Source: Thermoanaerobaculia bacterium
GTDB taxonomy: Bacteria; Acidobacteriota; Thermoanaerobaculia; Multivoradales; JAHEKO01
Assembly (NCBI GenBank): GCA_041394745.1
Contig: JAWKHP010000014.1
Location: 21,562 to 85,561 of the forward strand
Length of the DNA: 64,000 nt
Direction of reading: 5' to 3'
In this document: positions 23,566 to 62,541 of the stretch, piece after piece
How the letters are laid out: the number at the start of each line of letters is the position of its first letter
Position numbering within the stretch: position 1 is the stretch's first letter
Translations under genes and position numbers: made by a program
Notes under the pieces: model-generated
The model's input: the letters and a program-made list of their open reading frames with translations, nothing else
Databases searched by the model: none
What the model was told of the DNA's origin: nothing

Positions 23566-26500
23566 TCAGCTGAGGAGCATCTTGAGGTCGTCGGCGGTGA
23601 GCTCGCCGAGGCCGCTGCCCTCGCCGCCCTCGAGGATGGTCTCCGCCAGCTGCTTCTTCGAGCGCTGCAGGTCGAGGATCTTCTCCTCGACGGTGTCGCG
23701 GGCGATCATGCGGTAGGCGAAGACCGGCTGGGTCTGGCCGATGCGGTGGGCGCGGTCGATGGCCTGGGCCTCGACGGCGGGGTTCCACCACGGGTCGAGC
23801 AGGAAGACGTAGTCGGCGGCCGTCAGGTTGAGCCCGGTGCCGCCCGCCTTGAGGCTGACCAGGAAGAGCTTGCACTCCGGATCGGTCTGGAACCGCTCGA
23901 CCGGGGCCGCGCGATCGCGGGTCTGGCCGTCCAGATAGGCGTAGGGCAAGCCGCGCTGCTCGAGGTCTTCGCGCACGTAGGCCAGCAGGCTGGTGAACTG
24001 CGAGAAGACGAGGACCTTGTGGCCCTCGTCGAGCACCTCGTCGACCTGCTCGAAGAGGGCCTCGAGCTTGGCGCTGCCCGCCCGCCGCCACTCGTCCTTG
24101 ACGAGACCCGGGTGACAGGCCACCTGCCGCAGCCGCAGGAGCGCCTCGAGCACCTGCATCGTCGAGCCCGCGACACCCTTCGAGCTCACCTGGTCGAGCA
24201 GGCTCGCCTGGTACTCGGCGCGCAGGGCATCGTAGAGCTCCCGCTGCTCCGGCCGCAGCGAGCAGAACAGGACCTGCTCGGTTTTCGGCGGCAGGTCGGC
24301 CAGCACCTCGCTCTTGGTGCGGCGCAGGATGAAGGGACGCAGGCCGCGCGCCACCAACGCGAGCTGCTCGCGGGTCGGCGTCCCACCGCTGACCAGCACG
24401 TCGAGCCGCGGCATCCGGCCCAGCAGGCCGGGGTTCAGGAACTCGAACAGGGAGCCGAGCTCGCCGAGGTGGTTCTCGATCGGCGTGCCGGTGAGGGCCA
24501 GCCGGTGGCGCCCGGTGAGCAGACGGCTCGCCTTGGCCGTCTGGGAGTCCGGGTTCTTGATCGCCTGTGCCTCGTCGAGGACGACGCTGTCGAACTCGAC
24601 GGTCGAGAGGAAGCCGATGTCGCGCCGTAGGGTGCCGTAGGTGGTCACCACCAGGTCGTAGTCGCCGAGCTTCCCTTGCAGCTGCTCGCGGTCGCTGCCG
24701 TGGTACTCGACGACCTTCAGCTTCGGTGTGAAGCGGCCCGCCTCGTCGACCCAGTTGTAGACCAGGCTGCGCGGCGCCACCACCAGAGACGGCAGCCCGG
24801 TGCTCTTCGACGGCGTCCGGTGGGCGTGCAGGTGAGCCAGCACCTGCACCGTCTTGCCGAGCCCCATGTCGTCGGCGAGCACGCCGCCGAGGCCGAACTC
24901 ACGCAGGAACGACAGCCAGCCGAGGCCCTGACGCTGGTAGCCGCGCAGCGTGCCCTTGAACCCGCGGGCCTCCTTGATCGGCTCGACCCGCTCGAAGGAG
25001 GAGAGCTTCTCGCGCAGCTCGGCGAACGCCTTGTCGACCTGCGCCGGCGGCATCGCGGCGAGCAGGGCGTCGACCAGCGCCGCCTGCGAGGTCAGGAACC
25101 GCAGGCCGTCCTCGGTCTCCTCCTGGGCCAGCTCCGACAGCGAGCCGTAGGTCTCCATCCATGCCTCCGGCAGCACGCCCTGCGAGCCGTCCTCGAGCTC
25201 GATGAAGCGTTCGCCCTTGGAGACGGCGGCGAGGAGCCGGCGCATCTCGACGCGGTCGCCCGCGAAGTCCACGTCGCCGGAAACCTCGAACCAATCGATA
25301 CCGCTTTCCACCTTGAGGGCCGGCGGGTTGGGCCGGCGCAGGGAGGCACCGTGCACCTCCACCGACCATCCTTCCGACAGCAGGGCCTCGGCGACGTCGG
25401 GCAGCTCGGCCGGGCGCAGCTGCAGACCGTGGTCCTGCGACCCCTCGACGGGCCGCAAGCCGAGCTCCACCAGCCGCACGACCGACTCGCGCTCCCGGTC
25501 GATGTCGCGACGGGCGTAGCGGCCCTCCTCCCAGTCGACGATCGCCGGTCGCAGGTCCTCGGCGTTCACCTCCAGCTCGCCGTAGAGGAAGGTGAGCCGG
25601 GCGAGCAGCGGCGCGCTGTTCCAACCGGAGACCGGCAGCGGCTCGAGCACCAGCCGGGGCTGCGGTTCCGAGGGCTCCTGCTCGAGGTCCATGTCGTCGG
25701 GCGCCTCGAGCTCGGGAAGCTCGGGCAGCTCGAGCAGCGACACCAGCGCCTCGTCGAGCTCGCCGTTGGGAATGCGGACCTCGCCGTTCTCGATCAGCAT
25801 CTCCAGCCAGGGCAGGTCGCGCTCGCGGGTCAGGTCGAGCGGCGCCAGGGTCTTCGAGACCAGCAGGAGCCCGGTCGGGTCGTCGGCACCGTTGCGCGCG
25901 CCCGGCAGGATGAGTGCCGGATCGGTGAGCGCCACGCTCTCGTCGTCACGCTCGAAGACGCCGGTCAGCCGGGCGGAACCCCCGGCGACGCGCTCGAGGC
26001 GCAAGGCCAGCCGCCACGGCGAGCCGTCGTCCCAGGCCACTCGCGGAGGGCTGCCGGGGAGCGCCCGTCCCACCAGCTGAGCGTTCCCTCGTCGCACAGG
26101 TGCGGCAGGACGAGGTCGTAGAGATCGGGCGGCAGCTGGAACCGGCGCACGCCCCGGGACGACCGCCCGCGCGGGCGCCGGCCCTGCGCGACGCCGGCTC
26201 GGGCAGGAGGGCCGGGATGACGGCGAGATCGACCTGCAGCTCGTCGTCGTCCTCCTCCACCGGCAGCAGGATCGACTCCAGGTCCTCGGGTTCGATCGAG
26301 GTGGGCTTGGGCCTTCCGCCCCGGCCGCGTCCGCCGCTGAACACGTCGAGGACGAGCGAGTCGTCGCTGGCGGCCGTGTTGATCAGCAGCTGGACGTCGA
26401 GCGAGGACTCGTGCGACGAATCGGCCGACCGCGCCAGGGCGTCGCGTACCGTCTCGAACCGCGACCTCCAGCTGTCGACTTCACCGCGCCGCGCGCCGCG

Positions 26501-31391: not shown

Positions 31392-33183
31392 TCATGCCTC
31401 CTGCGAGGCGATCCACTCCTCCATCTTGCGGTGCAGCACCTGGAGGGGGAGGGCACCGTCGGTGAGGACGGCGCGGTGGAAGGCCTTGACGTCGAAGCGG
31501 TCGCCCAGACGGCGCTCGGCCTCGGCGCGCAGGCTCGAGATCTCGCGCTGGCCGACCTTGTAGGCCAACGCCTGACCGGGGATCGCGATGTAGCGCTCGA
31601 CCTCCGCCACGACGTCGCTCTCGGCCATCGAGGAGTGCTCCATCATGTAGTCGATCGCCTGCTGGCGGGACCAGCCCTTGGCGTGCATGCCGGTGTCGAC
31701 GACCAGGCGCATGGCCCGGAGCATCTCGTCGGAGAGCCTGCCGTAGTAGCTGTAGGGATCGGTGAACAGACCGAGCTCCTTGCCGAGCGACTCGGAGTAG
31801 AGGGCCCACCCCTCGAAGAAGGCGGTCTCGCCACCGAAGCGGCGGAAGCGCGGCAGCTCCTCGATCTCCTGCGCGATGGAGATCTGGAAGTGGTGGCCGG
31901 GCGAGGCCTCGTGCAGAGAGAGCGTCTCCATGCCGAACTTGGGCTGCGCCTTGAGGTTGTAGGTGTTGACGTAGAAGACGCCGGGGCGGGAGCCGTCGGG
32001 GCTCGCGGGCTGGTAGGAGGCTCCGGCCGCGGACTCCTGCATGAACTCCGGCACCGGGCGCACCTCGTAGTCTGCCTGCGGGAAGATGTCGAACTCTGCG
32101 GCAGCTTCTCGTTGATCCTCGCCTGCAGCGCGCGGTACCCGGCGAGCAGGTCCTCGACGTCGTCGTAGTAGAAGCGGTCCGAGGTCTCGAGCTCGGTGAA
32201 GAACTCGCAGGGTGCCCTCGAAGCCGACCTCGCGCATCACCCTCCATCTCGCCGGTGATGCGAGCGACCTCGTCGAGGCCGAACCGGTGGATCTGGTCCG
32301 GCGTCAGGTCGCTCGTCGTCTGCGTCTTCACCTGGTAGGCGTACCAGGCCTCGCCGTCGGGCAGCGCCGTCAGGGCGATCGTGTCGCGGCAGGCGGGAAT
32401 GTACTCGTCGCGGACGAACTCGTAGAGCCGGCGATAGACCGGCACGAGCTCGTCGCGGATGGCCGCGACGTAGGCCTCCCGCAGCTCGTCGCGGACCTCC
32501 TCGGGGACCTCCTCCGGGAACTCGGCGACCGGCATGTAGAAGACCGACTGCGTCGGGTCGTCGACGATGTGCGCCTCGAGCTGCGGCAGGACCTTCTCCA
32601 TCAACGGCCTCGGCTGCACGACGCCCTTCGCCATCCCCTCGCGCATGTTGGCGATCGCCTGGTCGAAGAGGACGACGGCGTCGGTGATGCGGAGGAGGAA
32701 GTCGCGGTAGTCCTGCTCGGTGTGGAAGGGCTGGACGCTCTGCCCGGAGCCCATCTGGGCGAAGAACGACGGGAAGCTCGAGAACTGATCGAGCGGGATC
32801 AGCTCGCCCGGGAAGCGGGCGCCCTCGAGAGCCATCTCCCGCTCGTAGACGAAGATGTCGTAGGAGAGGCGGTCCTGCCCCGAGAGCCCGTCGCGGTCGA
32901 TCGCCTGGATCGTGTCGAGCCAGCGTCGGTCGAAGGCCTGCTGGTCGGCGATGTACTCGGCGGAGAGGAAGTTCGGGATGTGGCCGTTGTAGCGCGGGTC
33001 GCCGATGAAGGTCCCCAGCAGCGGGTTGCGCTCCATCGACTCCTCGAAATAGCGGTCGAAGAGGTCGTTCATCTCGGCGGCGACCGCCTCCGGATCGGGA
33101 GCGGGCTCCTCGGGGGCCTGGGCGCAGGCGGCGGTGAGGAGCAGGGCGGCGACGACGGGCGCGCTGCGGCGGACGGATCGCAT
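31392..33183 (-). pseudogene. DUF885 family lipoprotein, with three or more indels within ~150 nt.
   Basis: ATG at 33183 follows AGGAG and gives MRSVRRSAPVVAALLLTAC. The N-terminal half is in ORF 31312..33234 and the C-terminal half in ORF 31392..32240 (HEASPGHHFQ motif). Frame changes at ~32235, ~32195 and ~32100. Confidence 0.85.
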
Positions 33184-33296: not shown

Positions 33297-35148
33297 ATGA
33301 GCGGTCCGGAAGCCAGGAAGAAGCGTCCCTCGCTGGGGGTGGTGTGGCGCGAGGCCAAGCACCTGCTGTGGGCCCACCGCCGGCGTCTGGCGATCGGCCT
33401 CGGCCTGCTGGTGGTCTCCCGGCTCTCCGGCATGGTGCTGCCGGCCACCACCAAGGTGTTGATCGATCGGGTGATCGGCAACCACGAGGTGGAGCTCCTC
33501 TGGTGGATCGCGGTGGCGGCCGGCGCGGCCACCGTGGTGCAGGCGGCGACGAGCTTCTCGCTCACCGTGCTGCTGGGAGTCGCCGGGCAGCGGGCGATCA
33601 CCGATCTGCGCCTGAAGGTCCAGCGGCACATCAACCGGCTGCCGGTCTCCTACTTCGACGAGCACAAGTCGGGCGAGCTGATCTCGCGCATCATCAACGA
33701 CGCCGAAGGAGTGCGCAACCTCGTCGGCACCGGCTTCGTGCAGCTGACCGGGAGCTTCGTGACGGCGACCGTGGCGCTCGGCGTCCTGCTCTGGCTCAAC
33801 TGGCGGCTCACCCTCCTGACGCTGGTCTTCCTCGGCGTCTTCGGCGCTCTGCTCTTCGTCGGTTTCTCGAGGCTGCGGCCGATCTTCCGCGAGCGCGGCA
33901 AGCTCCTGGCGGACTTGAACGGCCGCCTGTCGGAGAGCCTTCAGGGCGTGCGCGTCGTCAAGGCCTACACCGCCGAGAAGCGGGAGGAGCGCACGTTCGC
34001 CCGCCACGCCCACGTGCTGCTGCGCAACATCGCGCGCTCGATGGTCGGGATGTCGACGATCGGCAGCCTCTCACGGCTCCTCTTCGGCTTCGTCGGCATC
34101 GCCCTCTCGGTGGCCGGGGCACGGGCCGTGCTCGCCGGGCAGATGACCGTCGGCGACATCTTCATGTTCGTCGTCTTCACCGGCTTGCTGGTGACGCCGC
34201 TGGTGCAGGCCTCGAACATCGGCACGCAGATCACCGAGGCCTTCGCCGGGCTCGACCGCATCCGCGAGGTGCTCTCGGTCGAGCCGGAGGACGAGGACCC
34301 GGCGCGGACGGTGCGCCTCGGCGCCGTGCGCGGCGAGGTCGCCTTCGACCGGGTCTCCTTCGAGTACAAGGCCGGCGTGCCGGTGCTCCACGACGTCTCC
34401 TTCGAGAGCCCGGCGGGGACGACGACGGCGCTGGTGGGCTCCTCCGGCGCGGGCAAGAGCACCGTCATCGGCCTGGTGATGGGCTTCCGCAAGCCGACCT
34501 CCGGCCGGGTGCTCGTCGACGGCGTCGATCTCGCCACGGTGCGCCTCAAGGACTACCGCGGCCAGCTGGCCGTGGTCATGCAGGACGACTTCCTCTTCGA
34601 CGGCACGATCGGCGACAACATCGGCTACGGCAAGCCCGGGGCGACGCGTGCGCAGATCGAGGAGGCGGCCGGCTGGCACGCTGCGAGGAGTTCATCGGCG
34701 GCTTCGAGGACGGCTACGACACGGTGATCGGCGAGCGGGGGTCAAGCTCTCCGAGGCCAGCGCCAGCGGGTCTCGATCGCCCGCGCCATGCTGGCGGACC
34801 CGCGCATCTCATCCTCGACGAGGCGACGTCGAGCCTCGACAGCGAGAACGAGGCGTTGATCCAGGAGGCGCTGGCAAGGCTCAAGACCGGTCGCACCTCC
34901 TTCGTCATCGCCCACCGGCTCTCGACCATCCTCTCGGCCGACCAGATCCTGGTCACGGAGGACGGCCGCATCGTCGAGCGCAGCCGCCACGCCGAGCTCT
35001 GGCGCTGGGCGGGCGCTACCGCGAGCTCTACGAGCGCCAGCACCGCTGGGAGGAGAACCTCTTCGTCAACCCCGGCGAGGACTTCACCCCCGAGCCGGTG
35101 CGCGAGAAGGCGGCGGCACGGCCGTCCGGCGGGCTGCCGCGGGACTGA
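33297..35148 (+). pseudogene. ABC exporter, fused permease-ATPase (MsbA-like), with multiple single-base deletions in the ATPase domain.
   Basis: ORF 33297..34727 carries the TMD and Walker A (GSSGAGKST). The signature reads VKLSEASASG where adding one g restores VKLSGGQRQR. Walker B reads ...RISSSTR where adding one c restores RILILDEATS. The tail is in ORF 34648..35148. Confidence 0.85.
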
Positions 35149-42795: not shown

Positions 42796-44328
42796 ATGAC
42801 TCGCGTTCACCGGTCCGCCCTGCTCCTCGCCCTCCTCCTCGCTCTCCCCTCGACCGTCCGGTCCGACGACGGCGAACCGACGATGGAGAACGAGAAGGCT
42901 CCGATCCCCGAGCCCCACCGCTTCGTCACCCACCACACCGGCACCTTCGGCGGTCGCACCGTGCGCTACACGGCGACGGCCGGCGAGACCTACCTGCGCG
43001 ACGACGACGGCAAGCCGACGGCGAGCGTCTTCACCTTCGCCTACGACGAAGACGGGCTCGAGGACCCGACGACGCGCCCCGTGACCTTCGTCTGGAACGG
43101 CGGGCCGGGGTCGGCCTCGGTCTGGCTCCACATGGGCACCTTCGGGCCGCGCCGGGTCGTGGTGCCGAGCGACGCCTCCGACGACGGCGCGCCGCCCTAC
43201 CCGGTGGAGGAGAACACGGCGACCATCCTCGACGTCACCGATCTGGTGTTCGTCGACCCGGTCGGAACCGGCTTCAGCCGGCCGCTCGGCGAGCACGAAG
43301 GCAAGGAGTTCTGGGGGCTGGACGAGGACGCCTCCTCGATCGCCCAACTGATCCGCCTCTGGGTCACCGAGAACGGCCGCTGGGCCTCGCCCAAGTACCT
43401 GCTGGGCGAGAGCTTCGGCACGACCCGCGCCGCGGCGGTCGCCGGCTACCTCGAGAGCGGTCGCGAGGACATGAGCCTCAACGGCCTGGTGCTCATCTCC
43501 CAGGCCCTCGACTACACCGGCTCGACGCCGGAACCGGACAACATCCTGGCCTTCGTCTCCTATCTGCCGACCATGGCCGCCACGGCGCGGTACCACGGCA
43601 GGGTCGCGGAGCCCGGCACCGACCTCGAGAGCTTCCTGGCCGAGGTACGCCGGTTCGCGACCGACGAGTACGCGCCGGCCCTGCTCATGGGAAGCGACCT
43701 CCCGGCCGAGCGCCGCGCCGAGATCGCCGAGCGGCTCGCCGCCTACACGGGCCTCTCGCGCGAGTACGTCGAGCGCGCCGACCTCAAGGTCCTGGCCTGG
43801 CGGTTCCTCAAGGAGCTGCTGCGTGACGAAGGCGTGGCGATCGGGCGGCTCGACGGGCGCTACGAGGGCGACGACATCGACGACACCGACGTCGAGCCGG
43901 ACGGCGATCCGTCGAGCTACGGCATCGACGGCGCCTTCAACGCGGCCTTCCACGACTACATCCGGCGCGAGCTCGACGTCGACATGGAAGGCCGGCCCTA
44001 CCACGTCTCCGGAGGCGTCGAGAGCTGGAACTGGCGCACCGTGCCGGAGGGCGGCTACTGGGAGCCCTCGTACGTCGACACCGCCCCCGCCCTGGCCCGG
44101 GCGATGCGGCGCAATCCCGAGCTCCGGGTGATGGTGGCCAACGGGTACTACGACTTCGCCACCCCGTTCTTCGACGCCGAGATCACGTTCCGGCGCCACG
44201 GCATCGCCACCGATCGGGTCGAGATGCACTACTACGAGGCGGGCCACATGATGTACATCCACGACCCGTCGCGGCAGCGGCTGATGGACGACGTGCGGCG
44301 CTTCTACGGCGAGTCCTCGACGCCCTGA
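42796..44328 (+). CDS. Secreted serine carboxypeptidase, peptidase S10 family.
   Basis: ORF 42796..44328, intact. Signal peptide, WNGGPGSAS, and the GESFG nucleophile motif (LLGESFGTTR). Confidence 0.9.
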   Translation: MTRVHRSALLLALLLALPSTVRSDDGEPTMENEKAPIPEPHRFVTHHTGTFGGRTVRYTATAGETYLRDDDGKPTASVFTFAYDEDGLEDPTTRPVTFVWNGGPGSASVWLHMGTFGPRRVVVPSDASDDGAPPYPVEENTATILDVTDLVFVDPVGTGFSRPLGEHEGKEFWGLDEDASSIAQLIRLWVTENGRWASPKYLLGESFGTTRAAAVAGYLESGREDMSLNGLVLISQALDYTGSTPEPDNILAFVSYLPTMAATARYHGRVAEPGTDLESFLAEVRRFATDEYAPALLMGSDLPAERRAEIAERLAAYTGLSREYVERADLKVLAWRFLKELLRDEGVAIGRLDGRYEGDDIDDTDVEPDGDPSSYGIDGAFNAAFHDYIRRELDVDMEGRPYHVSGGVESWNWRTVPEGGYWEPSYVDTAPALARAMRRNPELRVMVANGYYDFATPFFDAEITFRRHGIATDRVEMHYYEAGHMMYIHDPSRQRLMDDVRRFYGESSTP

Positions 44329-45249
44329 GCGGGTGCGGGTCGCCCCCCGCCGAGCCGCAAGCCGCGAACCAACGCCTCCAGCTCACCCATGCTCCGTCCG
44401 ACGAAAACGTGTCGGGCCGGGGGGACCGCGAGCTCGTCGACGGCTTCGCCTCCGACCACCAGGACCCCGCCTCTTGCGGCCACGAGCCGGGCGAGCGCCG
44501 CGAGCTCCCGAGATCGACCCTCTGCGTCGTCCACATGGGAGACGCTCACCCAGACGAGATCGGCGTCCATCGCTTCCACGGCGTGGGACAGCGCCGCGAC
44601 GGGGGTCGTCGCCCCCAGATTCACCGCCGAGACACCCTCCGCTTCGAGGACCAGGGCCACGGCGAGAGTCGGTAGCAGATAGGGATCGCCCTCGAGTCCG
44701 CCTCCTACCGCCAGCGTCTTCCCCTCCGGCGGAGGAAGACAGGCCCGTAGCGCGTTGAGTCCCTGCAAGGCCATCTCCGTGGCCCGATGCTCGACGACGA
44801 CGCCGTCGATACCCTCGCGCCAGAGACAGCCGATCCGCGTCATCGCCTCGCGCAGGGGGTGATCGACGATCCAGGCCGGCGAGCGCTGGCCCAGGTAGAG
44901 GGAGAGGAACAGGCCGCGCACCTCGCGCACGTCGCCGTCGACGAGCGCCCGGTGCACCGTCTCGGCCTCGTCCTCGCGATCCCCGGAGTGAGCGCCGCCA
45001 GCTCGACGAGCCCTAGGGCCGTCAGGCTGGACGAGGTCGACGTGCGCGGTCCGGATGAACCGGATCGCCTCGCTCACGGCAATGCAGCCGATGGCCGCCC
45101 GCGGCGCGGGCGGCGGTGATGCGCCCGTCGTCCACCCACCGCTTGACGGACGATTCGCTCACCCCGACGGCATCGGCCAACCGGCGCGGGCTGACGTGAT
45201 CACCCGCTAGTGGCGACTGTTTTGGACGATTGGACATTGGCAGGATCAT
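44304..45249 (-). pseudogene. CarH/LitR-like regulator: excisionase/MerR-type HTH plus B12-binding_2 and B12-binding domains, one frameshift.
   Basis: ORF 45022..45249 carries the HTH (LADAVGVSESSVKRWVDDGRI). ORF 44304..45077 carries the helical bundle (IGCLWREGIDGVVVEHRAT) and a Rossmann B12-like domain. Frame change at ~45075. The start could be 45249 or 45237. Confidence 0.75.
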
Positions 45250-45380
45250 GTTCCAACCTCCACTCAGGTCAAGCCGGAACGAATCGAACCCCGCCTATGC
45301 TCACACGGAACGGCTCGAGCTCGAGGCGCCCCTTGACCGGGATGAACGTTTTCGTCTACGTCGGTGAACGGTATGAACGC
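45195..45380. promoter_or_regulatory. Low-GC divergent control region between the regulator and the carotenoid genes, with short direct repeats.
   Basis: TGGAC-gat-TGGAC-at-TGGCA at ~45223-45243. GGAACG at 45276 and 45307. TGAACG at 45343, 45365 and 45374. TTGACC at ~45333. Confidence 0.3.
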
Positions 45381-45919
45381 TCGATCCTGCCTCCTCCTCC
45401 TCTCGCTCGTCGCGGCCCCTGCCGGGCGCGCCGTCGTCGACCTCCCGTCGCGGCCGGACACGCCTCCGCTCCCCGCCTTCGAGCTCCAGGATCAGAACGG
45501 CGCCACCGTTCGCGGCGCCGAGTTGCTCGGCCATCTGCGGTGCTGGTCGAAGCCGACCGGCGCGGCCGGGACGAGTCGGCCGGTGGTCGCAGGCACTCCT
45601 GCGCGCGCTACGCTCCCGCCCCGCCTCCGTCGACGTGCGGCTCCTGCGCGTCGCCGATCTCACCTCGGTTCCGCCCGGGGCCCGCCCTTCGCGCGACGCC
45701 TCGTCCGCGACGCCTACGACGTGCCCCTCCTGCTCGACTGGGACGGAGTCCTCGCGGACACGTTCAGCTTCGCGCTGGGGCTGGCCAACGTCCTCGTCTT
45801 CGACACCGACGGAACGCTGGCCGAGCGGCACGCGGGGCCGCCGCCCACGGACGGGCGGGTCGGCGCCCTGGTCGACCGCCTGCTCGACGGCACCCGGACC
45901 TCGCAGAGGGACACGATGA
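45373..45919 (+). pseudogene. Small secreted thioredoxin-fold-like protein (no CxxC seen), frameshifted; the 3' end is uncertain.
   Basis: ATG at 45373 gives MNARSCLLLLSLVAAPAGRA. FELQDQNGATVRGAELLGH and VPLLLDWDGVLADTF...VLVFDTDGTL are readable, with a compensated out-of-frame stretch at ~45535-45690. Confidence 0.4.
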
Positions 45920-45936
45920 ACGTCCTCGGCCCCCGC

Positions 45937-47493
45937 ATGACGGCCGCCCCGGGTCGTCGTCGTGGAGCCGGCCCGGCGGCCTGGCCAGCGCGATGCTGCT
46001 CGCCTCGGCCGGGCGGACGTGATGGTGGCCGAGCGGCGCGACCGGGAGTGGGCGGCCGCACCTCGACTTTCCAGGGCGGCGGCTTCACGTTCGATCTCGG
46101 CCCGACCTTCTTCCTCTACCCGCAGGTCTTGCGCTCGATCTTCGCGATGTGCGGCCGCTCGCTGGATCGACGAGGTGGAGCTCCTGCCCCTGACCCGCAC
46201 TACCGGCTGGTCTTCGAGGGTTCGGGCTCCTCGAGGTCACGGCCGATCTGGACCGGATGCGTCGCGAGGTCGCTCGCTTCTCGACCGCCGACGCCGCTCG
46301 GCTCGAGAGAGCTTCATGGAGGACAACCGCCGCAAGCTCGCCGCCTTCAAGCCGGTGCTCGAGTCCCCGTTCTCCGGCTGGAGCGACCTGCTGCGCCGTG
46401 ACCTGCTGGCCACCCTGCCCCCCTGTTGCGGCCTTGGGCGAGCGTCGAGTCCGACTCCGCAGGCACTTCGAGGATCCCCGTGTCCGGTTGGCGTTCTGGT
46501 TTCCAGAGCAAGTACCTCGGGATGTCGCCCTTCCAGTGCCCGGAGTCTCACCATCCTCTCGTTCCTCGAGTACGAAGCACGGAGTGTTCCACCCTCGCGG
46601 CGGCTGCGGCGCGGTCTCGGAAGCGATGGCGGACGCAGCCACGGAGCCAGTGCCGAGATCCGCTTGGGAGAACCCGTCGAGCGCATTCGCTTCGACGGTC
46701 AAGGAGCCGTCGTCGAGACCGCACGCGGTCGCCTCGAGCTCGACGCCCTGTCGTCAACGCCGACTTCGGCGGCGACGCGATGCAGCGCCTGGTCCCGGAC
46801 CGACTGTGCCGCCGCTGGTCGGATCGGGCGCTCGCGTCCAAGCGCTACTCGTGCTCGACCTTCATGCTCTACCTCGGCATCGACGGACCCCTGCCTCAGA
46901 TCCCGCACCACACGATCCACCTCGCCTCCGACTACCGCGAGCATCTGAACGACATCGAGCGCGACCATCGCCTGTCGGAGAACCCGTCCTCTACGTGCAG
47001 AACGCCAGCGCCACCGATCCCACCCTGGCGCCGCCGGGAGCCAGCGCGCTCTACGTCCTCGTGCCGGTCAGCCACCAGCACCTGGGCATCGACTGGACAT
47101 GGGAGGCACGCCTTCTACCGCGACCTGATCCTGCGCCGACTCGCCAAGATCGGCCTCGAGGGTCTCGGAGAGGTCGCATCCGCTGGGAGCGCATCGTGAC
47201 ACCCGACGATTGGCGGGCACAGCGCATCTACCGGGGCGCCACGTTCAACCTCGCGCAACCCTCGGCCAGATGCTCCACTTGCGGCCGCAGAACCGCTTCG
47301 AGGAGCTCGAGAGCGTCTACCTGGTGGGCGGCGGCACCTACCCGGGGAGCGGCCTTGCCGGTCATCTACGAGTCGGCCTGGCATCATTCTCAGTTCGATC
47401 GCCGACGATCCTCGCCTTGCCGCGCAGGTGGCGCAAGGCCGACGACGACACCCCGGCGGAGCGCGGCGAGCGTCCGCTGGCGAGGACCGCTGA
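45937..47493 (+). pseudogene. Phytoene/diapophytoene desaturase family FAD oxidoreductase (CrtI/CrtN-like), heavily frameshifted.
   Basis: Readable across frames: VVVVGAGPGGLASAMLLASAGRDVMVAERRDRVGGR, FTFDLGPTFF, GVFHPRGGCGAVSEAMA, RYSCSTFMLYLGIDG, LYVQNASATDPTLAPPG, VYLVGGGTYPGSGLPV. Fragments lie in ORFs 45364.., 45962.., 46257.., 46426.. and 47210... Boundaries are approximate. Confidence 0.75.
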
Positions 47494-48936
47494 GCGAGGC
47501 GGAGCCTGTCCTCCGCGCACGGCTCGCCGCCATGCGGACGGCGCAGACGCGGTGGCGTGCCCTCTCGTCCGCGAGAGGTTGGCGCCGGTTCGACGGGCTG
47601 CGGCACCGCATCGCCCACGACGCCGAGACGCTGGCCGCCGCCGTCTCCATCCACGCCGGGGTACCGGCGAGACGCTCGTCTCGGAAGTGCTCCTCTCGCC
47701 GAAGCGTGCCGCTTCCTCGAGCGCAACGCCGCCTCGCTGCTGGCGGCGCGTCGCTCGGCGCCGGGCGCCTCTTCTGGCTGCCGGGGCCTCCGGTCGGGTC
47801 CTGGCGTGGAGCCTCGGGGCGTCGTGCTGGTTCTCGGACCGTCGAACTATCCTCCTGATCCCGGCGATCCAGACGCTGCAGGCCCTGACTGCCGGCAACG
47901 CCGTTCTCTGGAAGCCCGGGCGCGCCGGGGCCGCGCGTGCGCCGCGAGCCTCGCCGGCATGCTATGGGATGCGGGTCTTCCGGCCGAACTGCTGGCCGTC
48001 CTGCACGAGGAGATCGACTGGGGGCTGAACGCCATCGAGCAGGGCGTGGATAAGGTCGTCGTGACCGGCTCCGGAGCGACCGGACGGCGGTGCTGATCAT
48101 CTGGTCGACGGCGTGATTCCGGCCTGCCTGGAGCTCTCGGGGTGCGACGCCGTGTTCCTCCGGCCCGAGGCCGATCCTGTGGTCGCGGCCGCCGGTATCG
48201 CCTTCGGCCTGACCTTCAACGGCGGCGCGACGTGCATGGCTCCCCGTCGCGCGGGCCCGTGCCCGAGCCGCTGCAAGAGCCTCGAGCGCGAGCTGGCCCG
48301 ACGCCTGACCGCCGCCCCCCGACGACGCTCACGCGGGAGGAGTCGGCCGATCTGCGCGAGGGCCTCGAGGAAGCCCTGGCCGCCGGGGCCTGGCATCGTA
48401 GCCGGTGCGCCTGCGCGGGCTCCGGTGTAGTCCCCGTCCCCGCCGACGCGCACCCCGGCTGCGGTTGTTGCGACGGCTCCATGATGCCGGTCAGCTTGCC
48501 CCGTCACGGTGCGCGACGAGGAGGAGGCGCTCGGGCTCGCCGCCGAGTGCCCGTTGGAAGCCGAGCGCGACGCTCTTCGGCGACGAGGAGCCCTGTCGTC
48601 GCATGGCCGAGCGCGTCGAAGCGGGCGTCGTCGTGATCAACGACGTGATCGTTCCCACTGCGGATCCACGCGTGTCCCGTTCGGCGGTCGCGGGCCAGCG
48701 GCTACGGCACCCGGGCGGCGCCGAAGGGCTGATCGAGATGACGTGGCCCAAGGCCGTGATCGCCCGTCGCGGCCGGCCGGCGGCCGCACTCGAGCGACCG
48801 GCGCCCCCGCCCTGTCGCTCGCCCTGCTGGCCGCCCTCCATGCCCGGACGCTGTCCGACCGCCTGCGGGGCTGGCGCGGCGTCCTGATCGAGCCCGGCGC
48901 CTCGCCCGGCGCTCCCCCGAGGAGAGACTGCGATGA
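47490..48936 (+). pseudogene. Aldehyde dehydrogenase family protein, heavily frameshifted.
   Basis: Readable: EACRFLERNAASLL, GVVLVLGPSNYP..IPAIQTLQALTAGNAVLWKPG, VDKVVVTGSGATGR, LELSGCDAVF, FNGGATCMAPRR (catalytic Cys context), VVVINDVIVPTADPR. The probable stop overlaps the next ATG (ATGA at 48933-48936). The start is approximate. Confidence 0.7.
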
Positions 48937-50480
48937 ACGGCGTCTCCGCCCCCTTCTCCGATCGCGTCGCCGTCATCGGCTTCGGCCTCGGCGGCCTCGC
49001 CGCCGCATGCACCCTCGCCGCCCGCGGCTACGCGGTCACGCGCTGTTCGAGAAGAACCCTGGCCTGGCGGCAGCCGCGGTGCTCGGCCGACGGGTTCCGC
49101 TTCGACATGGGCCTCCACGATCCTCACCGTGCCGAGCGTCCTCGAACGGATCTTCGCCGAGGCCGGGCGCTCCTTGCCGACGAGCGGCGCTGGTGCGCCT
49201 CGATCCCCAGTGGCGCAGCTTCTTCGACGACGGTACCGTCCTCGACCCGCACGAGGACGAGGACGCCACGGCCGGTGCCATCGCGCGGTTCGCCGGGGTC
49301 CGAGACGCGGAGGGATACCGGGATCTCCTCGCCCTCGCCGAGCGGCTGCACGACATCTCGGACCGCTTCTTCTCTGAAGAGCGTCGAGTCGGTGGCCGAC
49401 ACGCTGGACTGGAGAGCGAGTTTCCCTGGCGACGCTGGCCGACCTGGCGACCCTGCGCCTGGGCCGTTCCGTCGCCTCCACGATCCGCGCCCGGGTGCGG
49501 GACCCGCGCGTGGCTCAGGCTCGACCACTTCACGCAGTACGTGGGCCTTCGCCCTCCTGCTCGCCAGGCCGTGCTCTGCGGCATCGCGCACATGCAGACG
49601 GACGGCGGCGTCTGGTATCCGCGCGGGACGCGAGCCGCGCCCGAGGCCCCGGCCCGGCTGGCCCGGGAGCTCGGCGTCGACATCCGCACCGGGATCGGCG
49701 TGCGGCGCATCCTGCACCGCGACGATCGCGTCCACGGCCTCCAGACCGATCGGGAGAGACGCTTCGCCTCGGCGCCGTGGTGTCGAACATGGACTCGGTG
49801 CGCACCTACGACGAGCTGTGCGCGGCGAGCCGCCCGGCGCTTCGGGGCCCGCAACCGGTGGCGTCCCGCCTGCTCGGGAGTCGTGCTCTACCTCGGTCTC
49901 GACCGTGCCTACGACCACCTGGCACACCACGACTTCGTCTTCTCCCGCGATCCCGACGAGGAGTTCCACCTCGATCTACGAGCGGGGAGCCGCCCCCGAT
50001 CCGACCTGCTACCTGGCGGGCACCGGCGCGCACCGAGCCGGGCGTGGCACCGCCGGGAGGAGAGGCGCTCTACGTTCTGGTTCACGCTGCCCTGCGGCCG
50101 GGGCACGCCTGGCGGAGATGCCTCGCGCCATCGCCGGGTCATCCTGGACAAGCTCGTCTGGACGGCGGGGCCCGACGATCTCGAGAGCCGCATCAACCAC
50201 GAGAGCGTCCCCCCACACCGCCTGACATCCATCGGCGCCACCGCGTGCTGACGGAGCGATCTACGGGCTCGCCAGTCACGGGCTGCTCCGTGGCGCTTCA
50301 AGCCGGGGAACCGGAGTCGCGACGGAGGGCCTGTACCTCTGCGGCGGAGCCGCACATCCGGGGCTCCGCATGCCGATGGTCTTGATGTCCGGGTGGATCG
50401 CCGCGGACGCACCTCGGCGACCGGCCGGTCGCCGAGCGCCTGGCTCGCGGCCGCCGGCCGGCGAGCGGCCGAAGGAGACG
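48933..50480 (+). pseudogene. Second CrtI-family desaturase/oxidase (CrtP/CrtD-like), heavily frameshifted.
   Basis: ATG at 48933 follows GAGGAGAG. Readable: VAVIGFGLGGLAAACTLAARGYAVT, DGFRFDMG, LDHFTQYVG, GGVWYPRG, AVVSNMDSVRTYDEL, SGVVLYLGLDRAYDHLAHHDFVFS, GEALYVLVH, GLYLCGGAAHPGPGMPMVLMSGWIAA. No stop is recoverable at the 3' end. Confidence 0.75.
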
Positions 50481-51341
50481 ATGGCCGCACCTCCTCTCTC
50501 GGCCACGCGTCGCCCGGCGGCGGCCGCCTCGCGAGCCCGGCGACGGCCCCTCGTCGATCTGCCTCTTCTCGCCCCGGTCCCTCTCCCTGTTCCGTCTACC
50601 TGCGGCGCCACGCCCGCCGGCACTTCGCGGCGGTCAGGTCTCGCGGCGCGGCGTACCGGCGGAGGAGGTCGCACGGCCCGTCCTGGTCGTCTCCAACCAT
50701 CCCGGTTGGTGGGACCCTCCTCTTCATGCTGGTCGGGCCGGCCCCGCTGCCCGGGCGCGAAGGGTACGGCCCGATGGACTCGAGCCAGCTCGCCCGCTAC
50801 CCCTTCTCTTCCGCCGCTTCGGCGTCTTCGGCGTGGAGCCCGGCACGGTGGCTGGGGCGCGCGCCTTCCTCGAGATCGGGAGGCGGTCCGAAGCGCCTGC
50901 GGGCGAGCCTCTGGGTCACCGGGCAGGGTCGCTTCGCCGATCCGCGCTCGCGGCCCTGCGCCTCCGGCCCGGGTGGGACGGCTCCTCCACCGGTCCCGCG
51001 GCGTCGACCTCCTGCCGCTCGCCATCGAGTACCCGTTCTGGAACGAGCGCCGGCTCCCCGAGGCCCTCTCCTTCGGTCCTCCGGTGCCCGTCGACGAAGG
51101 CAGAGCCGCCCGCGGCGAGCTGGCGACAGGCCGTCGAGCGAGCTCTGGAAGCGGGAACAGGATCGTCTGGCCGGCGAGGCGATCGAGCGCGATCCGGCGC
51201 CTTCCTCGATCCGTGTCCGGAGCTCGGGAACTGGCGGCGTCTACGACCTCGCGCGCCGCGCTCCCGGGCAGGGCGGACCGACCGTTGAGCTCCCAGGCTC
51301 TCCCCGATCGTTCTCGCCCCGGCCGGGGTGTCGGCTCCTGA
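50481..51341 (+). pseudogene. PlsC-like (lysophospholipid) acyltransferase, frameshifted.
   Basis: ATG at 50481 follows GAAGGAG. Readable: VLVVSNHPGWWDPLLF (HX4D), LARYPF..RFGVFGVEPGT, LWVTGQGRFADPR, LLPLAIEYPFWNER, GGVYDLARR. The stop is either 51286-51288 or 51339-51341, depending on frame. Confidence 0.65.
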
Positions 51342-52366
51342 CGCTTTGGAACCTGCGGCTCCTCCGCGCCGCGCGCCGGGCCGAGGGACGTACCCGGCCG
51401 TCGGTTCCATCCTCATCCCGGCTCGCGATGAGGAGAGGGTGATCGAGTCGCGGTCGAGGCCGCCCTCCTGGCCAGCCGGAACGTCGATCTGGAGGTCCTG
51501 GTGCTGACGACGGCTCCACCGACCGCACGTCCGGATCGTCAGCTCGCCTGATGCGACCCCAGGCTGCGGCTGCTGCGCGGCACACCGCTGCCGCGCGGCC
51601 GGTGCGGAAAGAACCACGCGTGATCAGCTGGGGAGGGCGGCGCGCGCGGCGACGTCCTGCTCTTCGTGGACGCGGATGTCTCCCTGGCCTCGAGGCCGCG
51701 GCGAAGCTCTGCCGCCGAGCTCTCCGAACGCGCCGTCGACCTGCTGAGCGGCGTCCCGCGCCAGCTCACCGGCACGCTGACGGAGAAGCTCGTCGTACCG
51801 CTGATCCACCTGCGCTGCTCGGCTACCTCCCTGATCGCGCTGGCTCGCCAGTTCGGGCCACCTCGCCTGGCTGCGGCGTGCGGTCAGCTCGTCGCCGTGC
51901 GCCGGGACCGCTGGTGGAGGCCGGCATGCCGCGATCGGCGACCGGCGTCACGACGCCCTCGCCCTTGGCCTGCCTGTTCCGGCGGCGCGGCTTCCGGACC
52001 GACCTTCGTGGACGCTACCGCTCTGGCCTCCCGCCGGATGTACCGGAGCGTCCGCGAGGTTTGGAACGGGTTCGCCAAGAACGCCGTCGAGGGCATGGGC
52101 GCCCCTGCCGCCATCGTCCCCTGGATGCAGCCCTGCTCGCCGGCGGCCACGTCCTGCCCTTCGCCCTCCCTCTCCCATCCCGGGGCCCGGCCGCCGCCGC
52201 GCTCGTCCTCGGCACGAGCTGGCCTGATCGCGACGCGCTTCCGCCTCCCTCCTCGGCGCGCTCCTCCATCCGGTCGGAGTGACTCCTCCCCGTCGCCATC
52301 CAGTGGCATGCCCTGGTCCTCGCCCTCGCCGGACGGCGCGTCCCGTGGAAGGGGCGCACGGCCTGA
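51328..52366 (+). pseudogene. Family 2 glycosyltransferase, frameshifted.
   Basis: GTG at 51328 is in frame with SILIPARDEERVIE. Also readable: LVLDDGSTDRT, DPRLRLL, CGKNHA, DVLLFVDADV, LLSGVPRQLTGTLTEKLVVPLIH, MYRSVREVWNGFAKNAVEG. The tail GRRVPWKGRTA is followed by TGA at 52364-52366. Confidence 0.7.
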
Positions 52367-60272: not shown

Positions 60273-60794
60273 TCACGCCCCCAGTCCCGCCGGCGCCAGC
60301 TCCTGCAGGTGCTCCCGGATGCGGCGCCGGCCCCGGTGCAGGTAGACGCGCACCGTGTTGAGCGGCAGCTCCAGGATCTCGGCGATCTCGCGGTACTTGA
60401 ACCCCTGCACCTCGCGCATCAACACGACGCTGCGCATCGGCTCGCCGAGCGTGCCCAGCGCCCCCTCGAGGCGCTCGCGCAGCTGCGCGCCCTCGGCCGT
60501 GCTGGCCGGGGAGGGCCCCGGATCGGGCGCCGTGCCGAGGGCGACCTCGCCGGAATCGGCGACGTGCTCGCGCACCACCTTGACGTGTCGCAGCCGGTCG
60601 AAGCAGAGGTTGCGGGTGACCCGCATCAGCCAGGCCGGGACGCGATCCGGATCGAGCTCCTCCCAGTGGGTCCATAGCTTCATGAAGGCCTCCTGCGTGA
60701 CGTCCTCGGCATCTTCGGGCCGGCCGAGCAGATACGACGCATAGGTGAACACCTGCCGCTGACACTCGTCGACGAGTCTGTCGAAGGCTTCCAA
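60273..60794 (-). CDS. ECF-type RNA polymerase sigma factor.
   Basis: 3' part of ORF 60273..60953. Region 2 (AEDVTQEAFMKLW, WLMRVTRNLCFD) and region 4 (FKYREIAEILELPLNTVRVYLHRGRRRI). The TTG at 60794 is the first start candidate after the upstream stop. Confidence 0.85.
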   Translation of the reverse strand: MEAFDRLVDECQRQVFTYASYLLGRPEDAEDVTQEAFMKLWTHWEELDPDRVPAWLMRVTRNLCFDRLRHVKVVREHVADSGEVALGTAPDPGPSPASTAEGAQLRERLEGALGTLGEPMRSVVLMREVQGFKYREIAEILELPLNTVRVYLHRGRRRIREHLQELAPAGLGA

Positions 60795-60810
60795 CGCGTC
60801 GTCCGTCCGC

Positions 60811-61506
60811 TCACTCCAGCACCACCCGCGCGTCGCCGACCCCGAGACGGGCGCGGATCCGCGCGGGGCCGGCGCCCTCGCTCCACTCGAGCCGGGCACC
60901 CACCAGGAAGGGGCGGCCGGAGCTCCCGCCGGCGGCACCGGCCAGGCTCGCATCGCCGATGCGCGTGCGCAGCGCGACGCTGCCGACCGCGACGCGCGGA
61001 GACCGGATGGTGAGATCTCCCACTCCCATCGACACCTCCACGTCGCGCCCGCCGGCGCTCAGGTCGGCGACGCCGACTCCCAGGCGCAGCGCCAGGGGCG
61101 CGCGACGAGGGTAGACCACGCGCCCCTTCAGGTCGAGCTTCGCCAAGCTCCATCGGGAGAGGCCGGCCAGCGAGACACGCACGACGCCGTCCTCGTGACG
61201 GGCGACGAGGCGCAGGTTGCCCCGGTACCGTTCGCAGCGGGCGGCGGAGAGCTCGTCGCAGCCCACCCCGACCTCGGTGCGGACGTCCGGCACGTCCGCC
61301 GCCACCAGCTCCAGCTCGCCGACGCGGAAGACCACCTCCACGCGCTCTCCGGGCGCCACCGGCTCGACCGATCGGAGCTCGTCGACGACCTCCACGCGGT
61401 CCGAGAAGCGGGGCATCGCGGGGTCGACCGCGGCTCCGAAGGCGGGTGCGGCGATCACGAACAGGGCTGCGAGCCGGAGGGCCGGTGCCTTGGAGTTGCC
61501 GTCCAT
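60811..61506 (-). CDS. Secreted beta-rich protein (DUF4097/putative-adhesin-like), first gene of the ECF operon.
   Basis: ORF 60811..61506. Signal peptide MDGNSKAPALRLAALFVIAAPAFGAA. Repetitive V.V..GDL.I strands. Confidence 0.7.
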   Translation of the reverse strand: MDGNSKAPALRLAALFVIAAPAFGAAVDPAMPRFSDRVEVVDELRSVEPVAPGERVEVVFRVGELELVAADVPDVRTEVGVGCDELSAARCERYRGNLRLVARHEDGVVRVSLAGLSRWSLAKLDLKGRVVYPRRAPLALRLGVGVADLSAGGRDVEVSMGVGDLTIRSPRVAVGSVALRTRIGDASLAGAAGGSSGRPFLVGARLEWSEGAGPARIRARLGVGDARVVLE

Positions 61507-61516
61507 TCAGCCGGTC

Positions 61517-61542
61517 TACGAGCGCCCCGGGCCGGTTGTTAC
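61517..61542 (-). promoter_or_regulatory. Candidate ECF-type promoter (GTAAC-N17-CGTA) immediately upstream of the ATG at 61506.
   Basis: The minus strand reads tGTAACaaccggcccggggcgctCGTAgaccggctgaATG. -35 at 61538-61542 and -10 at 61517-61520. No Shine-Dalgarno sequence, so the transcript would be nearly leaderless. Confidence 0.35.
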
Positions 61543-61572
61543 AGCTCCCGGGAGATAGGCTCGGAGACTGCC

Positions 61573-62541
61573 ATGAGCGCCCCGCCACCGACCGTACCCA
61601 CCCTGCGCCTGGGCATCTCCTCGTGCCTGCTCGGGGAGGAGGTGCGCTACGACGGCGGGCACAAGAACGACGCCTTCGTGCGCGGCCTGCTCGAGCCCTT
61701 CGTCGCGTGGATCCCGGTCTGCCCCGAGGTCGAGGTCGGCATGGGCGTGCCGCGCGAGGCCGTGCACCTCGAGGGCGAGCTCTCCGCGCCCCGCATGGTC
61801 GGCTCGCGCTCCGGCACCGACTGGTCGCAGGCCATGCGCCGCTGGGCGCGCCGCCGGGTCGAGGAGCTCTCCGCCGCCGATCTCGACGGCTACCTGCTCA
61901 AGAGGGGCTCTCCCAGCTGCGGGCTGCATCGGGTCAAGGTCTTCGTCGGCGGCATGCCGAGGCCGGAAGGGCGCGGCCTCTTCGCCGCCGAGCTCGCCCG
62001 CGCGCTCCCCCTCCTGCCCCTCGAAGAGGAGGGCCGCCTGCGCGACCCGGCGCTGCGCGAGCGCTTCGTGGCCGCGGCCTTCGCGCACCGGCGCTTCAAG
62101 GACGCCCTCGCCGCCGACCCGACGCCGGGCGGGCTCGTCGCCTTCCACACCGGCTACAAGCTCACGATCATGGCCCACAGCCCCGAGCACTACCGTGCCA
62201 TGGGCCGGCTCGTCGCCGACTCCGGCACGCTCCCCTGGGGTGAGCTCACGGGCTCCTACGCGCGCCTGCTCGCCGAGGCTCTCGCCGTCCCGGCCCGCCG
62301 CGGCCGTCACGTCAACACCCTGCAGCACCTCGCCGGATTCCTCAAGCGCCGCCTGAGCGCCGCCGACAAGGAGGAGCTCGGCACCGTCATCGAGAGCTAC
62401 CGGCGCGGCCAGGTCCCCCTCGTCGTGCCCCTGACGCTGCTGCGCCACCACTTCCGGCACGCCGAGACCCCGGCCTGGGTACACCGGCAGATCTACCTCG
62501 ACCCCTATCCGGCCGAGCTGATGCTGCGCAACGAGATCTGA
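61573..62541 (+). CDS. DUF523 + DUF1722 fusion protein (YbgA-like).
   Basis: ATG at 61573 within ORF 61195..62541. Readable: GISSCLLGEEVRYDGGHK, VCPEVEVGMGVPRE, SPSCG (DUF523), then a helical DUF1722-like half (HLAGFLKRRLS, YRRGQVPLVVPLTLLRHH). Confidence 0.85.
   Translation: MSAPPPTVPTLRLGISSCLLGEEVRYDGGHKNDAFVRGLLEPFVAWIPVCPEVEVGMGVPREAVHLEGELSAPRMVGSRSGTDWSQAMRRWARRRVEELSAADLDGYLLKRGSPSCGLHRVKVFVGGMPRPEGRGLFAAELARALPLLPLEEEGRLRDPALRERFVAAAFAHRRFKDALAADPTPGGLVAFHTGYKLTIMAHSPEHYRAMGRLVADSGTLPWGELTGSYARLLAEALAVPARRGRHVNTLQHLAGFLKRRLSAADKEELGTVIESYRRGQVPLVVPLTLLRHHFRHAETPAWVHRQIYLDPYPAELMLRNEI

Follow-up and report, generated by a model that had tools for sequence, protein, structure and literature searches.

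A probably intact carotenoid glycosyl-ester gene cluster and a CarH-like regulator beneath dense, likely technical frameshifts in a Thermoanaerobaculia contig

The window analysed here is a 64,000-nucleotide stretch of contig JAWKHP010000014.1 from a Thermoanaerobaculia bacterium (Acidobacteriota). Between approximately 44.3 and 52.4 kb it carries a regulator gene with B12-binding domains and, transcribed divergently from it, an operon for two CrtI-family enzymes, an aldehyde dehydrogenase (ALDH), an acyltransferase and a glycosyltransferase, all of which can be read only through frameshifts. We consider it likely that the block holds a genuine operon, probably a functional one, and that the approximately 86 frameshifts in it are technical insertion and deletion (indel) errors, not biology. 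The features of the block are given below, with the number of frameshifts needed to read each gene and, where one is available, the identity to the closest related contig found (L064).

44304 to 45249, minus strand: regulator with a HTH_17/MerR-like helix-turn-helix (HTH), a B12-binding_2 domain and a Rossmann B12-binding-like domain; aligned over 45201-44370, 73% identical to the intact L064 ortholog, 3 shifts
45250 to 45363: divergent intergenic and promoter region, aligned with the L064 intergenic region
45364 to 45940, plus strand: conserved protein of the 196-amino-acid type with a hydrophobic N-terminus, at the head of the operon; 58% identity with its counterpart in L064 (995-1585), 4 shifts
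45937 to 47493, plus strand: desaturase 1 (des1), CrtI family, CrtN/CrtI branch; 77% identical to L064 des1 over 507 codons (45926-47491), 18-21 shifts, no nonsense codon
47427 to 48935, plus strand, start approximate: ALDH (Aldedh family); aligned over 47427-48910, 16-18 shifts
48933 to 50520, plus strand, end approximate (last aligned codon ~50450): desaturase/oxidase 2 (des2), CrtI family, CrtP/CrtD branch; 16-18 shifts, no nonsense codon
50513 to 51274, plus strand: PlsC/lysophospholipid-type acyltransferase with the HX4D motif NHPGWWD; aligned over 50542-51259, 7-9 shifts
51292 to 52366, plus strand, start approximate, stop TGA at 52364-52366: GT2 glycosyltransferase with the motifs DDGSTDRT and FVDADV; 12-14 shifts, apparent in-frame TGA at 51621
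44986 to 52282: indel-dense low-quality stretch with ~86 frameshifting indels and ~1-2% substitutions, beginning inside the regulator gene and ending 84 nt before the GT2 stop

The layout of the block is that of intact clusters elsewhere. The stitched des1 protein has, over its full length, thousands of intact matches annotated as "phytoene desaturase family" (best match P0001, 644 bits), and L064 repeats the arrangement of the window, with a divergent regulator of 290 amino acids, the 196-amino-acid gene, a desaturase and the start of an ALDH gene. Contigs from a JGI metagenome (L065) and from Acidobacteria bacterium Mor1 (L067) carry, in order, CrtI-family, Aldedh, CrtI-family, acyltransferase, GT2, ABC_tran and ABC2_membrane genes. 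Plasmid p3 of Azospirillum brasilense Sp7 encodes an ALDH, two crtI-family genes, a lysophospholipid acyltransferase and a glycosyltransferase, which are 49-68% identical to the repaired proteins of the window. Orthology with A. brasilense is one-to-one, des1 being 59% identical to copy 1 of the crtI-family genes vs 36% to copy 2, and des2 68% identical to copy 2 vs 35% to copy 1.

Once repaired, the remaining proteins are equally recognisable. The ALDH is 68% identical to that of L064 (over the N-terminal 280 amino acids), 50% to L065 and 53% to A. brasilense, scores 161 bits against Pfam Aldedh, and its catalytic-region motifs ELSGCDA and FNGGATCMAPRR are legible. Identity to the counterparts in L065, L067, L070 (a further Acidobacteriota-type relative) and A. 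brasilense is 66-68% for des2 (copy 2 in A. brasilense, with the same 18 shift sites in each comparison), 46-51% for the acyltransferase, whose homologs bear PF01553, and 52-58% for GT2, which has Pfam Glycos_transf_2 and Glyco_transf_21 matches and weak NCBIfam matches to HpnB and CruG. After repair, the domains of ALDH, GT2 and the regulator are full-length Pfam matches. The gene content and order proposed by a first-pass annotation of this DNA, made from the letters and their open reading frames and without database searches, are therefore upheld: intact clusters show the same synteny, and the repaired proteins match curated family models. The landmarks of that annotation stand as well: the regulator stop at 44304, the des1 ATG at 45937, the GT2 stop at 52364-52366 and NHPGWWD in the acyltransferase. 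Its gene list was incomplete, as it had overlooked the gene at 45364-45940. This 196-amino-acid gene heads the operon in both the window and L064, is not found in L065, L067 or A. brasilense, and has no match in Pfam, NCBIfam or PDB; its stop overlaps the des1 start codon (ATGA).

Beyond the 3' end of the cluster, three Acidobacteriota-type relatives carry a pair of ABC_tran and ABC2_membrane genes (L065 15706-17810, L067 16512-18565, L070 11875-13985), a transporter that may perhaps serve in pigment export. The window has no ABC-transporter genes or remnants downstream of GT2. An Rfam scan of the window returned no riboswitch and no other RNA family, and no terminator was found in a scan 3' of GT2.

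The window has a guanine-cytosine (GC) content of approximately 72%, uniform at 0.69-0.75 per 2-kb segment. Stops are scarce in every frame of such GC-rich DNA, and as such the GC content at third codon positions (GC3) was taken as the frame indicator. In the intact genes of the window GC3 is 0.92-0.96 and its phase is stable. Across ~44.3-52.4 kb, GC3 in the best phase is no higher than ~0.7-0.87 (300-nt windows) and the phase keeps switching, which is unique at such scale in the window. A simple GC3 and open reading frame (ORF) filter found no confident gene between 44328 and 52471, and the raw ORFs of the block gave Pfam fragments only, namely profile positions 22-86 of Amino_oxidase and 167-220 of Aldedh, and B12-binding_2. 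Between 50383 and 51286 no forward frame contains a stop trinucleotide; at 903 nt this is the longest such run in the window, and the acyltransferase gene falls within it.

Frameshifts were counted in two ways. Trained on the intact genes of the window, a Viterbi decoder that scores codon usage and penalises frameshifts required 57 shifts in the block, and placed shifts only at gene ends in control genes. Plain tblastn and tblastx proved misleading on the block: with stops so scarce in every frame at 72% GC, high-scoring segment pairs continue through wrong frames. They were replaced by our own protein-to-DNA aligner with explicit frameshift states. With intact homologs from L064, L065, L067, L070 and A. 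brasilense Sp7 as references, the aligner placed 84 shifts between 44989 and 52282, with a mean spacing of 88 nt and a coefficient of variation of 0.88, and 86 once stops were forbidden in the alignment. The shift positions agree across four independent references, including L070 and A. brasilense Sp7. In the regulator, all shifts (44989, 45020 and 45084) lie within 100 nt at the N-terminal end. The genes on either side are clean: no shift occurs at 37.8-44.9 kb or at 52.4-58 kb. Near-continuous frameshifting of the block, and a stretch at ~50393-51288 without stops in three frames, had both been described in the first-pass annotation, and both are confirmed, the frameshifting by the GC3 phase, the decoder and the aligner, and the stop-free run with the slightly different limits given above.

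The frameshifting is, however, not a property of the cluster. A decoder scan of the whole window combined with a Pfam check found at least five smaller patches with multiple frameshifts, which the first-pass annotation had not noticed, the block being the largest of the set; in each of the smaller ones the gene ends are clean and stitching yields coherent proteins.

5547 to 6405, minus strand: FeoB patch, ~7 shifts; the stitched protein regains FeoB_N, Gate and FeoB_C
15951 to 16920, minus strand: C25 peptidase patch, N-terminal region, ~10 shifts
26039 to 26197, minus strand: SNF2/SWIM helicase patch, 2 shifts
32098 to 32241, minus strand: DUF885 patch, 3 shifts within 143 nt; unstitched, the ORF covers no more than profile positions 301-532
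34680 to 34997, plus strand: ABC ATPase patch, 4 shifts across the signature and Walker B motifs

The same type of damage thus hits unrelated genes of the contig, and we regard this as decisive in favour of sequence error. The source of error might be, for example, a long-read consensus of low coverage or one left unpolished. A variant of the technical explanation, in which the indel noise stems not from simple low coverage but from a consensus that merges diverged strains or spans a strain-variable island carried by part of the population, seems to us unlikely. It would suit the sharp bounds of the noisy patches and a cluster that may be accessory: among 63 loci reached through the intact upstream S10 peptidase (best identity 62-66%, in metagenome-assembled genomes of Acidobacteriota) none has the cluster, the tblastx matches there being noise. 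The other patches, on the other hand, strike ordinary core-type genes such as FeoB and the ABC ATPase.

Two side observations concern these patches. Five of the patch starts (5547, 15951, 26039, 34680 and 44986) lie 8.6-10.4 kb apart, an approximately 10-kb periodicity that could reflect windowed polishing or read tiling, although none is seen at 52.3-64 kb and the patch at 32.1 kb is off-cycle. Directly upstream of the frameshifted feoB lies a single ORF (6813-7814, minus strand) whose product joins FeoA domains to the C-terminal domain of an iron-dependent repressor.

Turning to what the cluster encodes, both repaired desaturases have full-length Amino_oxidase and NAD_binding_8 Pfam matches and exceed the whole-protein cut-off of TIGR02734, the model for CrtI-family carotenoid desaturases (481.2 bits for des1 and 325.5 for des2 vs a cut-off of 238.1). 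The possibility that they might fall outside the carotenoid desaturase family, which the first-pass annotation had named as fatal to its proposal, was hence not borne out. The assignment of des1 to CrtI-like and of des2 to CrtD-like models fits the published sister relations of CrtN with CrtI and of CrtP with CrtD (PMC9907078). The co-clustered tailoring set of oxidase, ALDH, glycosyltransferase and acyltransferase is complete, and its order is conserved as in L065, L067, L070 and A. brasilense. As first proposed, there is no CrtM/CrtB-type synthase: no gene of the SQS_PSY type was found among the genes of the 64-kb window, nor within 10 kb of the cluster in relatives. On the squalene route, an unlinked synthase would be expected and would not amount to a gap.

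From homology and synteny, we read the block as probably one instance of a widespread tailoring module for carotenoid-acid glycosyl esters, known from the squalene route to C30 carotenoids. Family membership and synteny are what was observed, and the steps that follow are proposed on that basis. Enzymes encoded elsewhere in the genome would supply a C30 backbone, squalene or diapophytoene, for des1 to desaturate; des2 would convert a terminal methyl group to an aldehyde, which ALDH would oxidise to the acid; GT2 would then esterify a sugar to the acid, and the acyltransferase would place a fatty acid on the sugar.

Characterised systems offer close parallels. In Planctopirus limnophila, CrtN and CrtP turn squalene (made by HpnCDE or Sqs) into 4,4'-diapolycopene-derived acids, which are present as acylated glycosyl esters, and CrtN has been reported in Acidobacteria, usually alongside HpnCDE (PMC9907078). 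By family and gene content, the window resembles this squalene route in a pair of CrtI-family enzymes proposed to act as CrtN and CrtP, in an acyltransferase of the kind that would give acylated glycosyl esters and in having no linked synthase. In Methylobacterium extorquens AM1, a glycosyltransferase (META1p3663) and an adjacent lysophospholipid-type acyltransferase (META1p3664) finish the acyl-glucosyl ester of 4,4'-diapolycopenedioic acid, together with a CrtP-like (META1p3665) and a CrtN-like (META1p3670) enzyme; the squalene genes are unlinked, and a CrtO probe found no homolog there, the PlsC-type enzyme performing the acylation (PMC10448405). Compared by gene set, the window likewise has two CrtI-family enzymes, a glycosyltransferase and a PlsC-type acyltransferase, and it lacks a synthase as the AM1 cluster does, whose HpnCDE genes for squalene are encoded away from it. 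Unlike AM1, where the ALDH has not been identified, the window has an ALDH gene inside the operon, as well as a leading 196-amino-acid gene and an adjacent B12-domain regulator. The staphyloxanthin genes of Staphylococcus aureus (crtOPQMN and aldH) follow the same logic of desaturase, oxidase, aldehyde dehydrogenase, glycosyltransferase and acyltransferase, but the window cluster differs from them in having no CrtM, another gene order, a PlsC-type acyltransferase and a host from a distant phylum. The staphyloxanthin-like logic that had been suggested for the locus is as such reasonable and agrees with the squalene-route C30 clusters (PMC9907078, PMC10448405), with the C30 product itself remaining the conditional part of the proposal.

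The cluster might instead tailor a C40 or other backbone, for example with a CrtI/CrtD-type pair leading to a C40 carotenoid acid or glycoside ester and a phytoene synthase elsewhere, which we hold to be rather improbable. The best specific NCBIfam models are of C40 type (CrtID for des1 and CrtD for des2), though both scores are well below the cut-offs; all homologs are publicly annotated as 'phytoene desaturase'; neither type of synthase is linked; and C30 and C40 operons are alike in architecture (PMC9907078). Against this, characterised-type C40 CrtI from Pantoea, Paracoccus and Thermus share only 34-36% identity with the L064 ortholog of des1, vs 53-63% for homologs encoded by Azospirillum, Microvirga, Gluconobacter and Rhodobacterales replicons, which have two copies per record and lie in clusters with the C30 gene set of M. 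extorquens (PMC10448405). The alphaproteobacterial orders of the des1 matches largely overlap those in the CrtN/CrtP tree of PMC9907078, an ALDH within the cluster suits the succession of CrtP, AldH and glycosyl ester, and no related locus contains a cyclase, hydratase, CrtE or CrtB.

Whether the frameshifts record sequence error or a carotenoid module in decay was judged from the spectrum of changes, obtained by nucleotide alignment of the block with L064 (76% identity). Indels are mostly of 1 nt, with 35 deletions vs 26 insertions and no large deletions, and most lie outside homopolymers, the run length at their sites being mostly 1-3; A or T was inserted in 16 of the 26 cases (hand count) in a sequence of 72% GC, and the spacing of shifts is Poisson-like. 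Replication slippage favours repeats, and bacterial decay favours deletions, larger ones included. In a relative-rate test of the window against its sister L064 with outgroups, lineage-specific amino-acid changes numbered 25 vs 12 in des1 and 18 vs 7 in ALDH, and near-invariant columns were altered in 5 of 120 cases in the window vs 1 of 120 in L064. This excess is modest, at ~1-2 substitutions per indel, whereas in natural pseudogenes substitutions outnumber indels 5-10-fold.

Nonsense codons point the same way. Only one credible case, the TGA at 51621, occurs in ~2,250 codons. Two other apparent in-frame stops were rejected: the one at 45938 is the stop of the upstream 196-amino-acid gene in the ATGA overlap, and that at 51549 vanishes with two extra frameshifts, which also restore the DDGSTDRT motif. 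When substitutions were simulated on the corrected coding sequence, 84-168 of them gave 2-4 stops, while 420-840 (5-10 times the number of indels) gave 9-21 stops, with a probability of two or fewer near 0. Damage also does not follow the gene as a unit. It sets in midway through the regulator gene, and the ~200 codons at the end of that gene (44370-44985) show neither a shift nor an excess of substitutions (8 vs 11). Start and stop signals and gene overlaps are retained throughout the block. Elsewhere in the window, stretches of 140-320 nt hold 3-4 shifts each, inside domains that are otherwise perfectly conserved and in genes whose ends are clean. The marks of a pseudogene, namely substitutions far in excess of indels, a build-up of nonsense codons, larger deletions, homopolymer bias and damage by gene unit, were not observed, and local sequencing or assembly errors are the most likely cause of the frameshifts.

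Several points nevertheless weigh against reading the block as a functional operon overlaid by technical error. The technical origin is a deduction from the indel pattern, and the C30 chemistry is drawn from gene content, similarity and literature. No near-identical contig with intact frames was found in the collections searched, where the best relative of des1 is 70-77% identical, and a metagenome scan with the regulator gave only relatives of 36-41%. The limits of the damage (44986-52282) nearly match one functional module, from regulator to GT2, as would be expected of a true loss of function. Corrected-frame GC3 is 0.84-0.90 in the block vs ~0.95 in the flanks, and is low even in the shift-free part of the regulator, which could indicate a different history. 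Part of this deficit is due to mis-framed codons beside the shifts; uniform random substitution was rejected as its cause, because ~13% substitutions and dozens of stops would be needed.

These last two points, together with the excess of amino-acid changes in des1 and ALDH, conserved columns included, with the TGA at 51621 and with the dispensability of the cluster, which follows from the relatives that have the flanking S10 peptidase without it, are what can be said for real frameshifts, that is, for a carotenoid module decaying with its regulator as a string of pseudogenes, and with FeoB, the ABC ATPase, DUF885 and others likewise in a genome in decay; given the ratio of indels to substitutions near 1:1-2, the near balance of single-nucleotide insertions and deletions outside any slippage context, and one stop where natural ratios predict many, we give this explanation little credence.

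The regulator had been likened to the light-responsive CarH/LitR repressors. The HTH, B12-binding_2 and B12-binding architecture on which that comparison was based is present, but membership in the sense of the published definitions is not. Its closest solved structure is CtMerR (8JBS; E=5.5e-19, across the HTH and both B12 subdomains), with Thermus CarH (5C8D) at E ~8e-6. CtMerR (8JBS/8JBT) is a light-responsive protein dependent on adenosylcobalamin (AdoCbl), an AdoCbl-bound tetramer in the dark and a monomer in the light, and the signature of light-responsive cobalamin-binding domains (SignatureFinder) comprises GxxW, EH, GxxH and GxxxP (PMC11796333). The regulator has GCLW, EH and GATTP, with GDPY in place of GxxH, so that the full signature is not present. 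The same holds for the motifs as defined in PMC9304148, i.e., Wx9EH and the classic B12 motif D/ExHx2G/P...SxT/V...GG, in which His provides the lower axial ligand of cobalt. Wx9EH occurs in the four-helix bundle as W-REGIDGVVV-EH, whereas the B12 motif reads D-P-Y-L-L-P x41 S-V-S x22 GG, with Tyr for the cobalt-ligating His and the remainder intact. This Tyr aligns without gaps with the His of CtMerR (GDLHEI) and of TtCarH (GERHEI), and it is not a sequence error, because the intact L064 ortholog carries it too. With Arg in place of the His, one such domain is reported to bind neither AdoCbl nor methylcobalamin (PMC11796333).

The RxWERRY recognition helix is also absent, the helix reading VKRWVDDG; HTH_17 (23.9 bits), MerR (20.7 bits) and the B12-binding Pfam match all fall below gathering thresholds; and the NCBIfam CarH equivalog NF052513 scores 38 bits vs a 400-bit cut-off. 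The regulator thus shares with CtMerR and with Thermus and Myxococcus CarH the three-part architecture, in the window with a gene divergent from a carotenoid operon, and is unlike them in its GDPY, its recognition helix and its equivalog score. Judged by these sequence features, it is CarH-like in architecture and context and not a member of CarH or class I LitR as defined. It would probably repress the operon and release it under light stress.

The Tyr is not peculiar to the window. It occupies the position of the His in 117 of 120 database homologs (43-54% identity; Planctomycetota, Acidobacteriota, Eisenbacteria and Myxococcales; P0122-P0240), in all 120 of which GxxW, EH and GxxxP, and the W, E and H of Wx9EH, are invariant. 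The genomic contexts of eight members of this Tyr clade were compared. In the window and L064 the neighbour is the carotenoid cluster, and in L070 a DNA photolyase and the same cluster. In L075 (1208-6703) and L076 (3694-8861), two unrelated long contigs, the regulator lies beside a divergent Amino_oxidase-DUF1365-CMAS-CMAS-DUF1295 operon, which we take to resemble photo-oxidative-stress and furan-fatty-acid gene sets. The neighbour in L072 is an extracytoplasmic function (ECF) sigma factor, and L071 and L074 have no obvious light-related neighbour.

A further comparison is class II LitR (PplR and PmlR of Pseudomonas), which is independent of B12, acts via an adjacent short light-oxygen-voltage (LOV) photoreceptor and has no recognisable Rossmann B12 domain (PMC9758184). 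Compared by description, the Tyr clade resembles class II LitR in keeping the four-helix bundle and in neighbourhoods reminiscent of its regulon of photolyase and furan or cyclopropane fatty-acid genes (PMC9758184). Unlike class II LitR, it keeps the Rossmann motif except for the His, and its neighbourhoods showed no LOV gene. We tentatively suggest, as a possibility we would put well short of even, that the regulator belongs to a large unrecognised CarH/CtMerR-like clade in Acidobacteriota, Planctomycetota, Eisenbacteria and Myxococcota, which has Tyr for the cobalt-ligating His, keeps the other signatures of AdoCbl photoreceptors and recurs beside light-stress genes.

The divergent promoter region holds a conserved element, CTTGACCGG(G/A)ATGAACGTTTT, at ~45332-45353, and three direct repeats of TGAACG at 45343, 45365 and 45374 (within 37 nt), which reach into the first codons of the 196-amino-acid gene; both are common to the window and L064. 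The element and the repeats form a candidate operator. A -35/-10-like site for the regulator lies on the minus strand at 45272-45245.

Elsewhere in the window, a gene at 61195-62541 (plus strand) encodes a fusion of 2-thiouracil desulfurase and DUF1722, a tRNA 4-thiouridine desulfidase of the RudS type, and adjoins an ECF sigma factor gene at 60273-60953 (minus strand). Genes of the RudS type have been discussed together with LitR (PMC11417400), and the pair may be a further light-linked locus of the window. The gene at 20619-22550 (plus strand), with CarboxypepD_reg/SdrD_B-type repeats, has a GC3 of ~0.81 in a stable frame, a composition atypical for this genome.

For the organism, the cluster itself is probably an ordinary and intact bacterial carotenoid glycosyl-ester cluster, and counting the pathway as dead or its genes as pseudogenes would be a mistake. 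Like the five or more smaller patches, the block needs a low-quality flag and the re-polishing that the first-pass annotation rightly advised. Because automatic gene calling breaks down across all 8 kb, the organism would falsely appear to be without carotenoid genes. With the block restored, the known distribution of the carotenoid-acid glycosyl-ester module gains one more uncultured lineage, which is unsurprising. The sole lead of wider interest is the clade with Tyr for His, which signature searches that require GxxH would miss. If this clade senses light, its members would either bind cobalamin in an unusual His-off mode or act as B12-independent effectors of another photoreceptor, and the clade could widen the known range of B12-domain light regulators.

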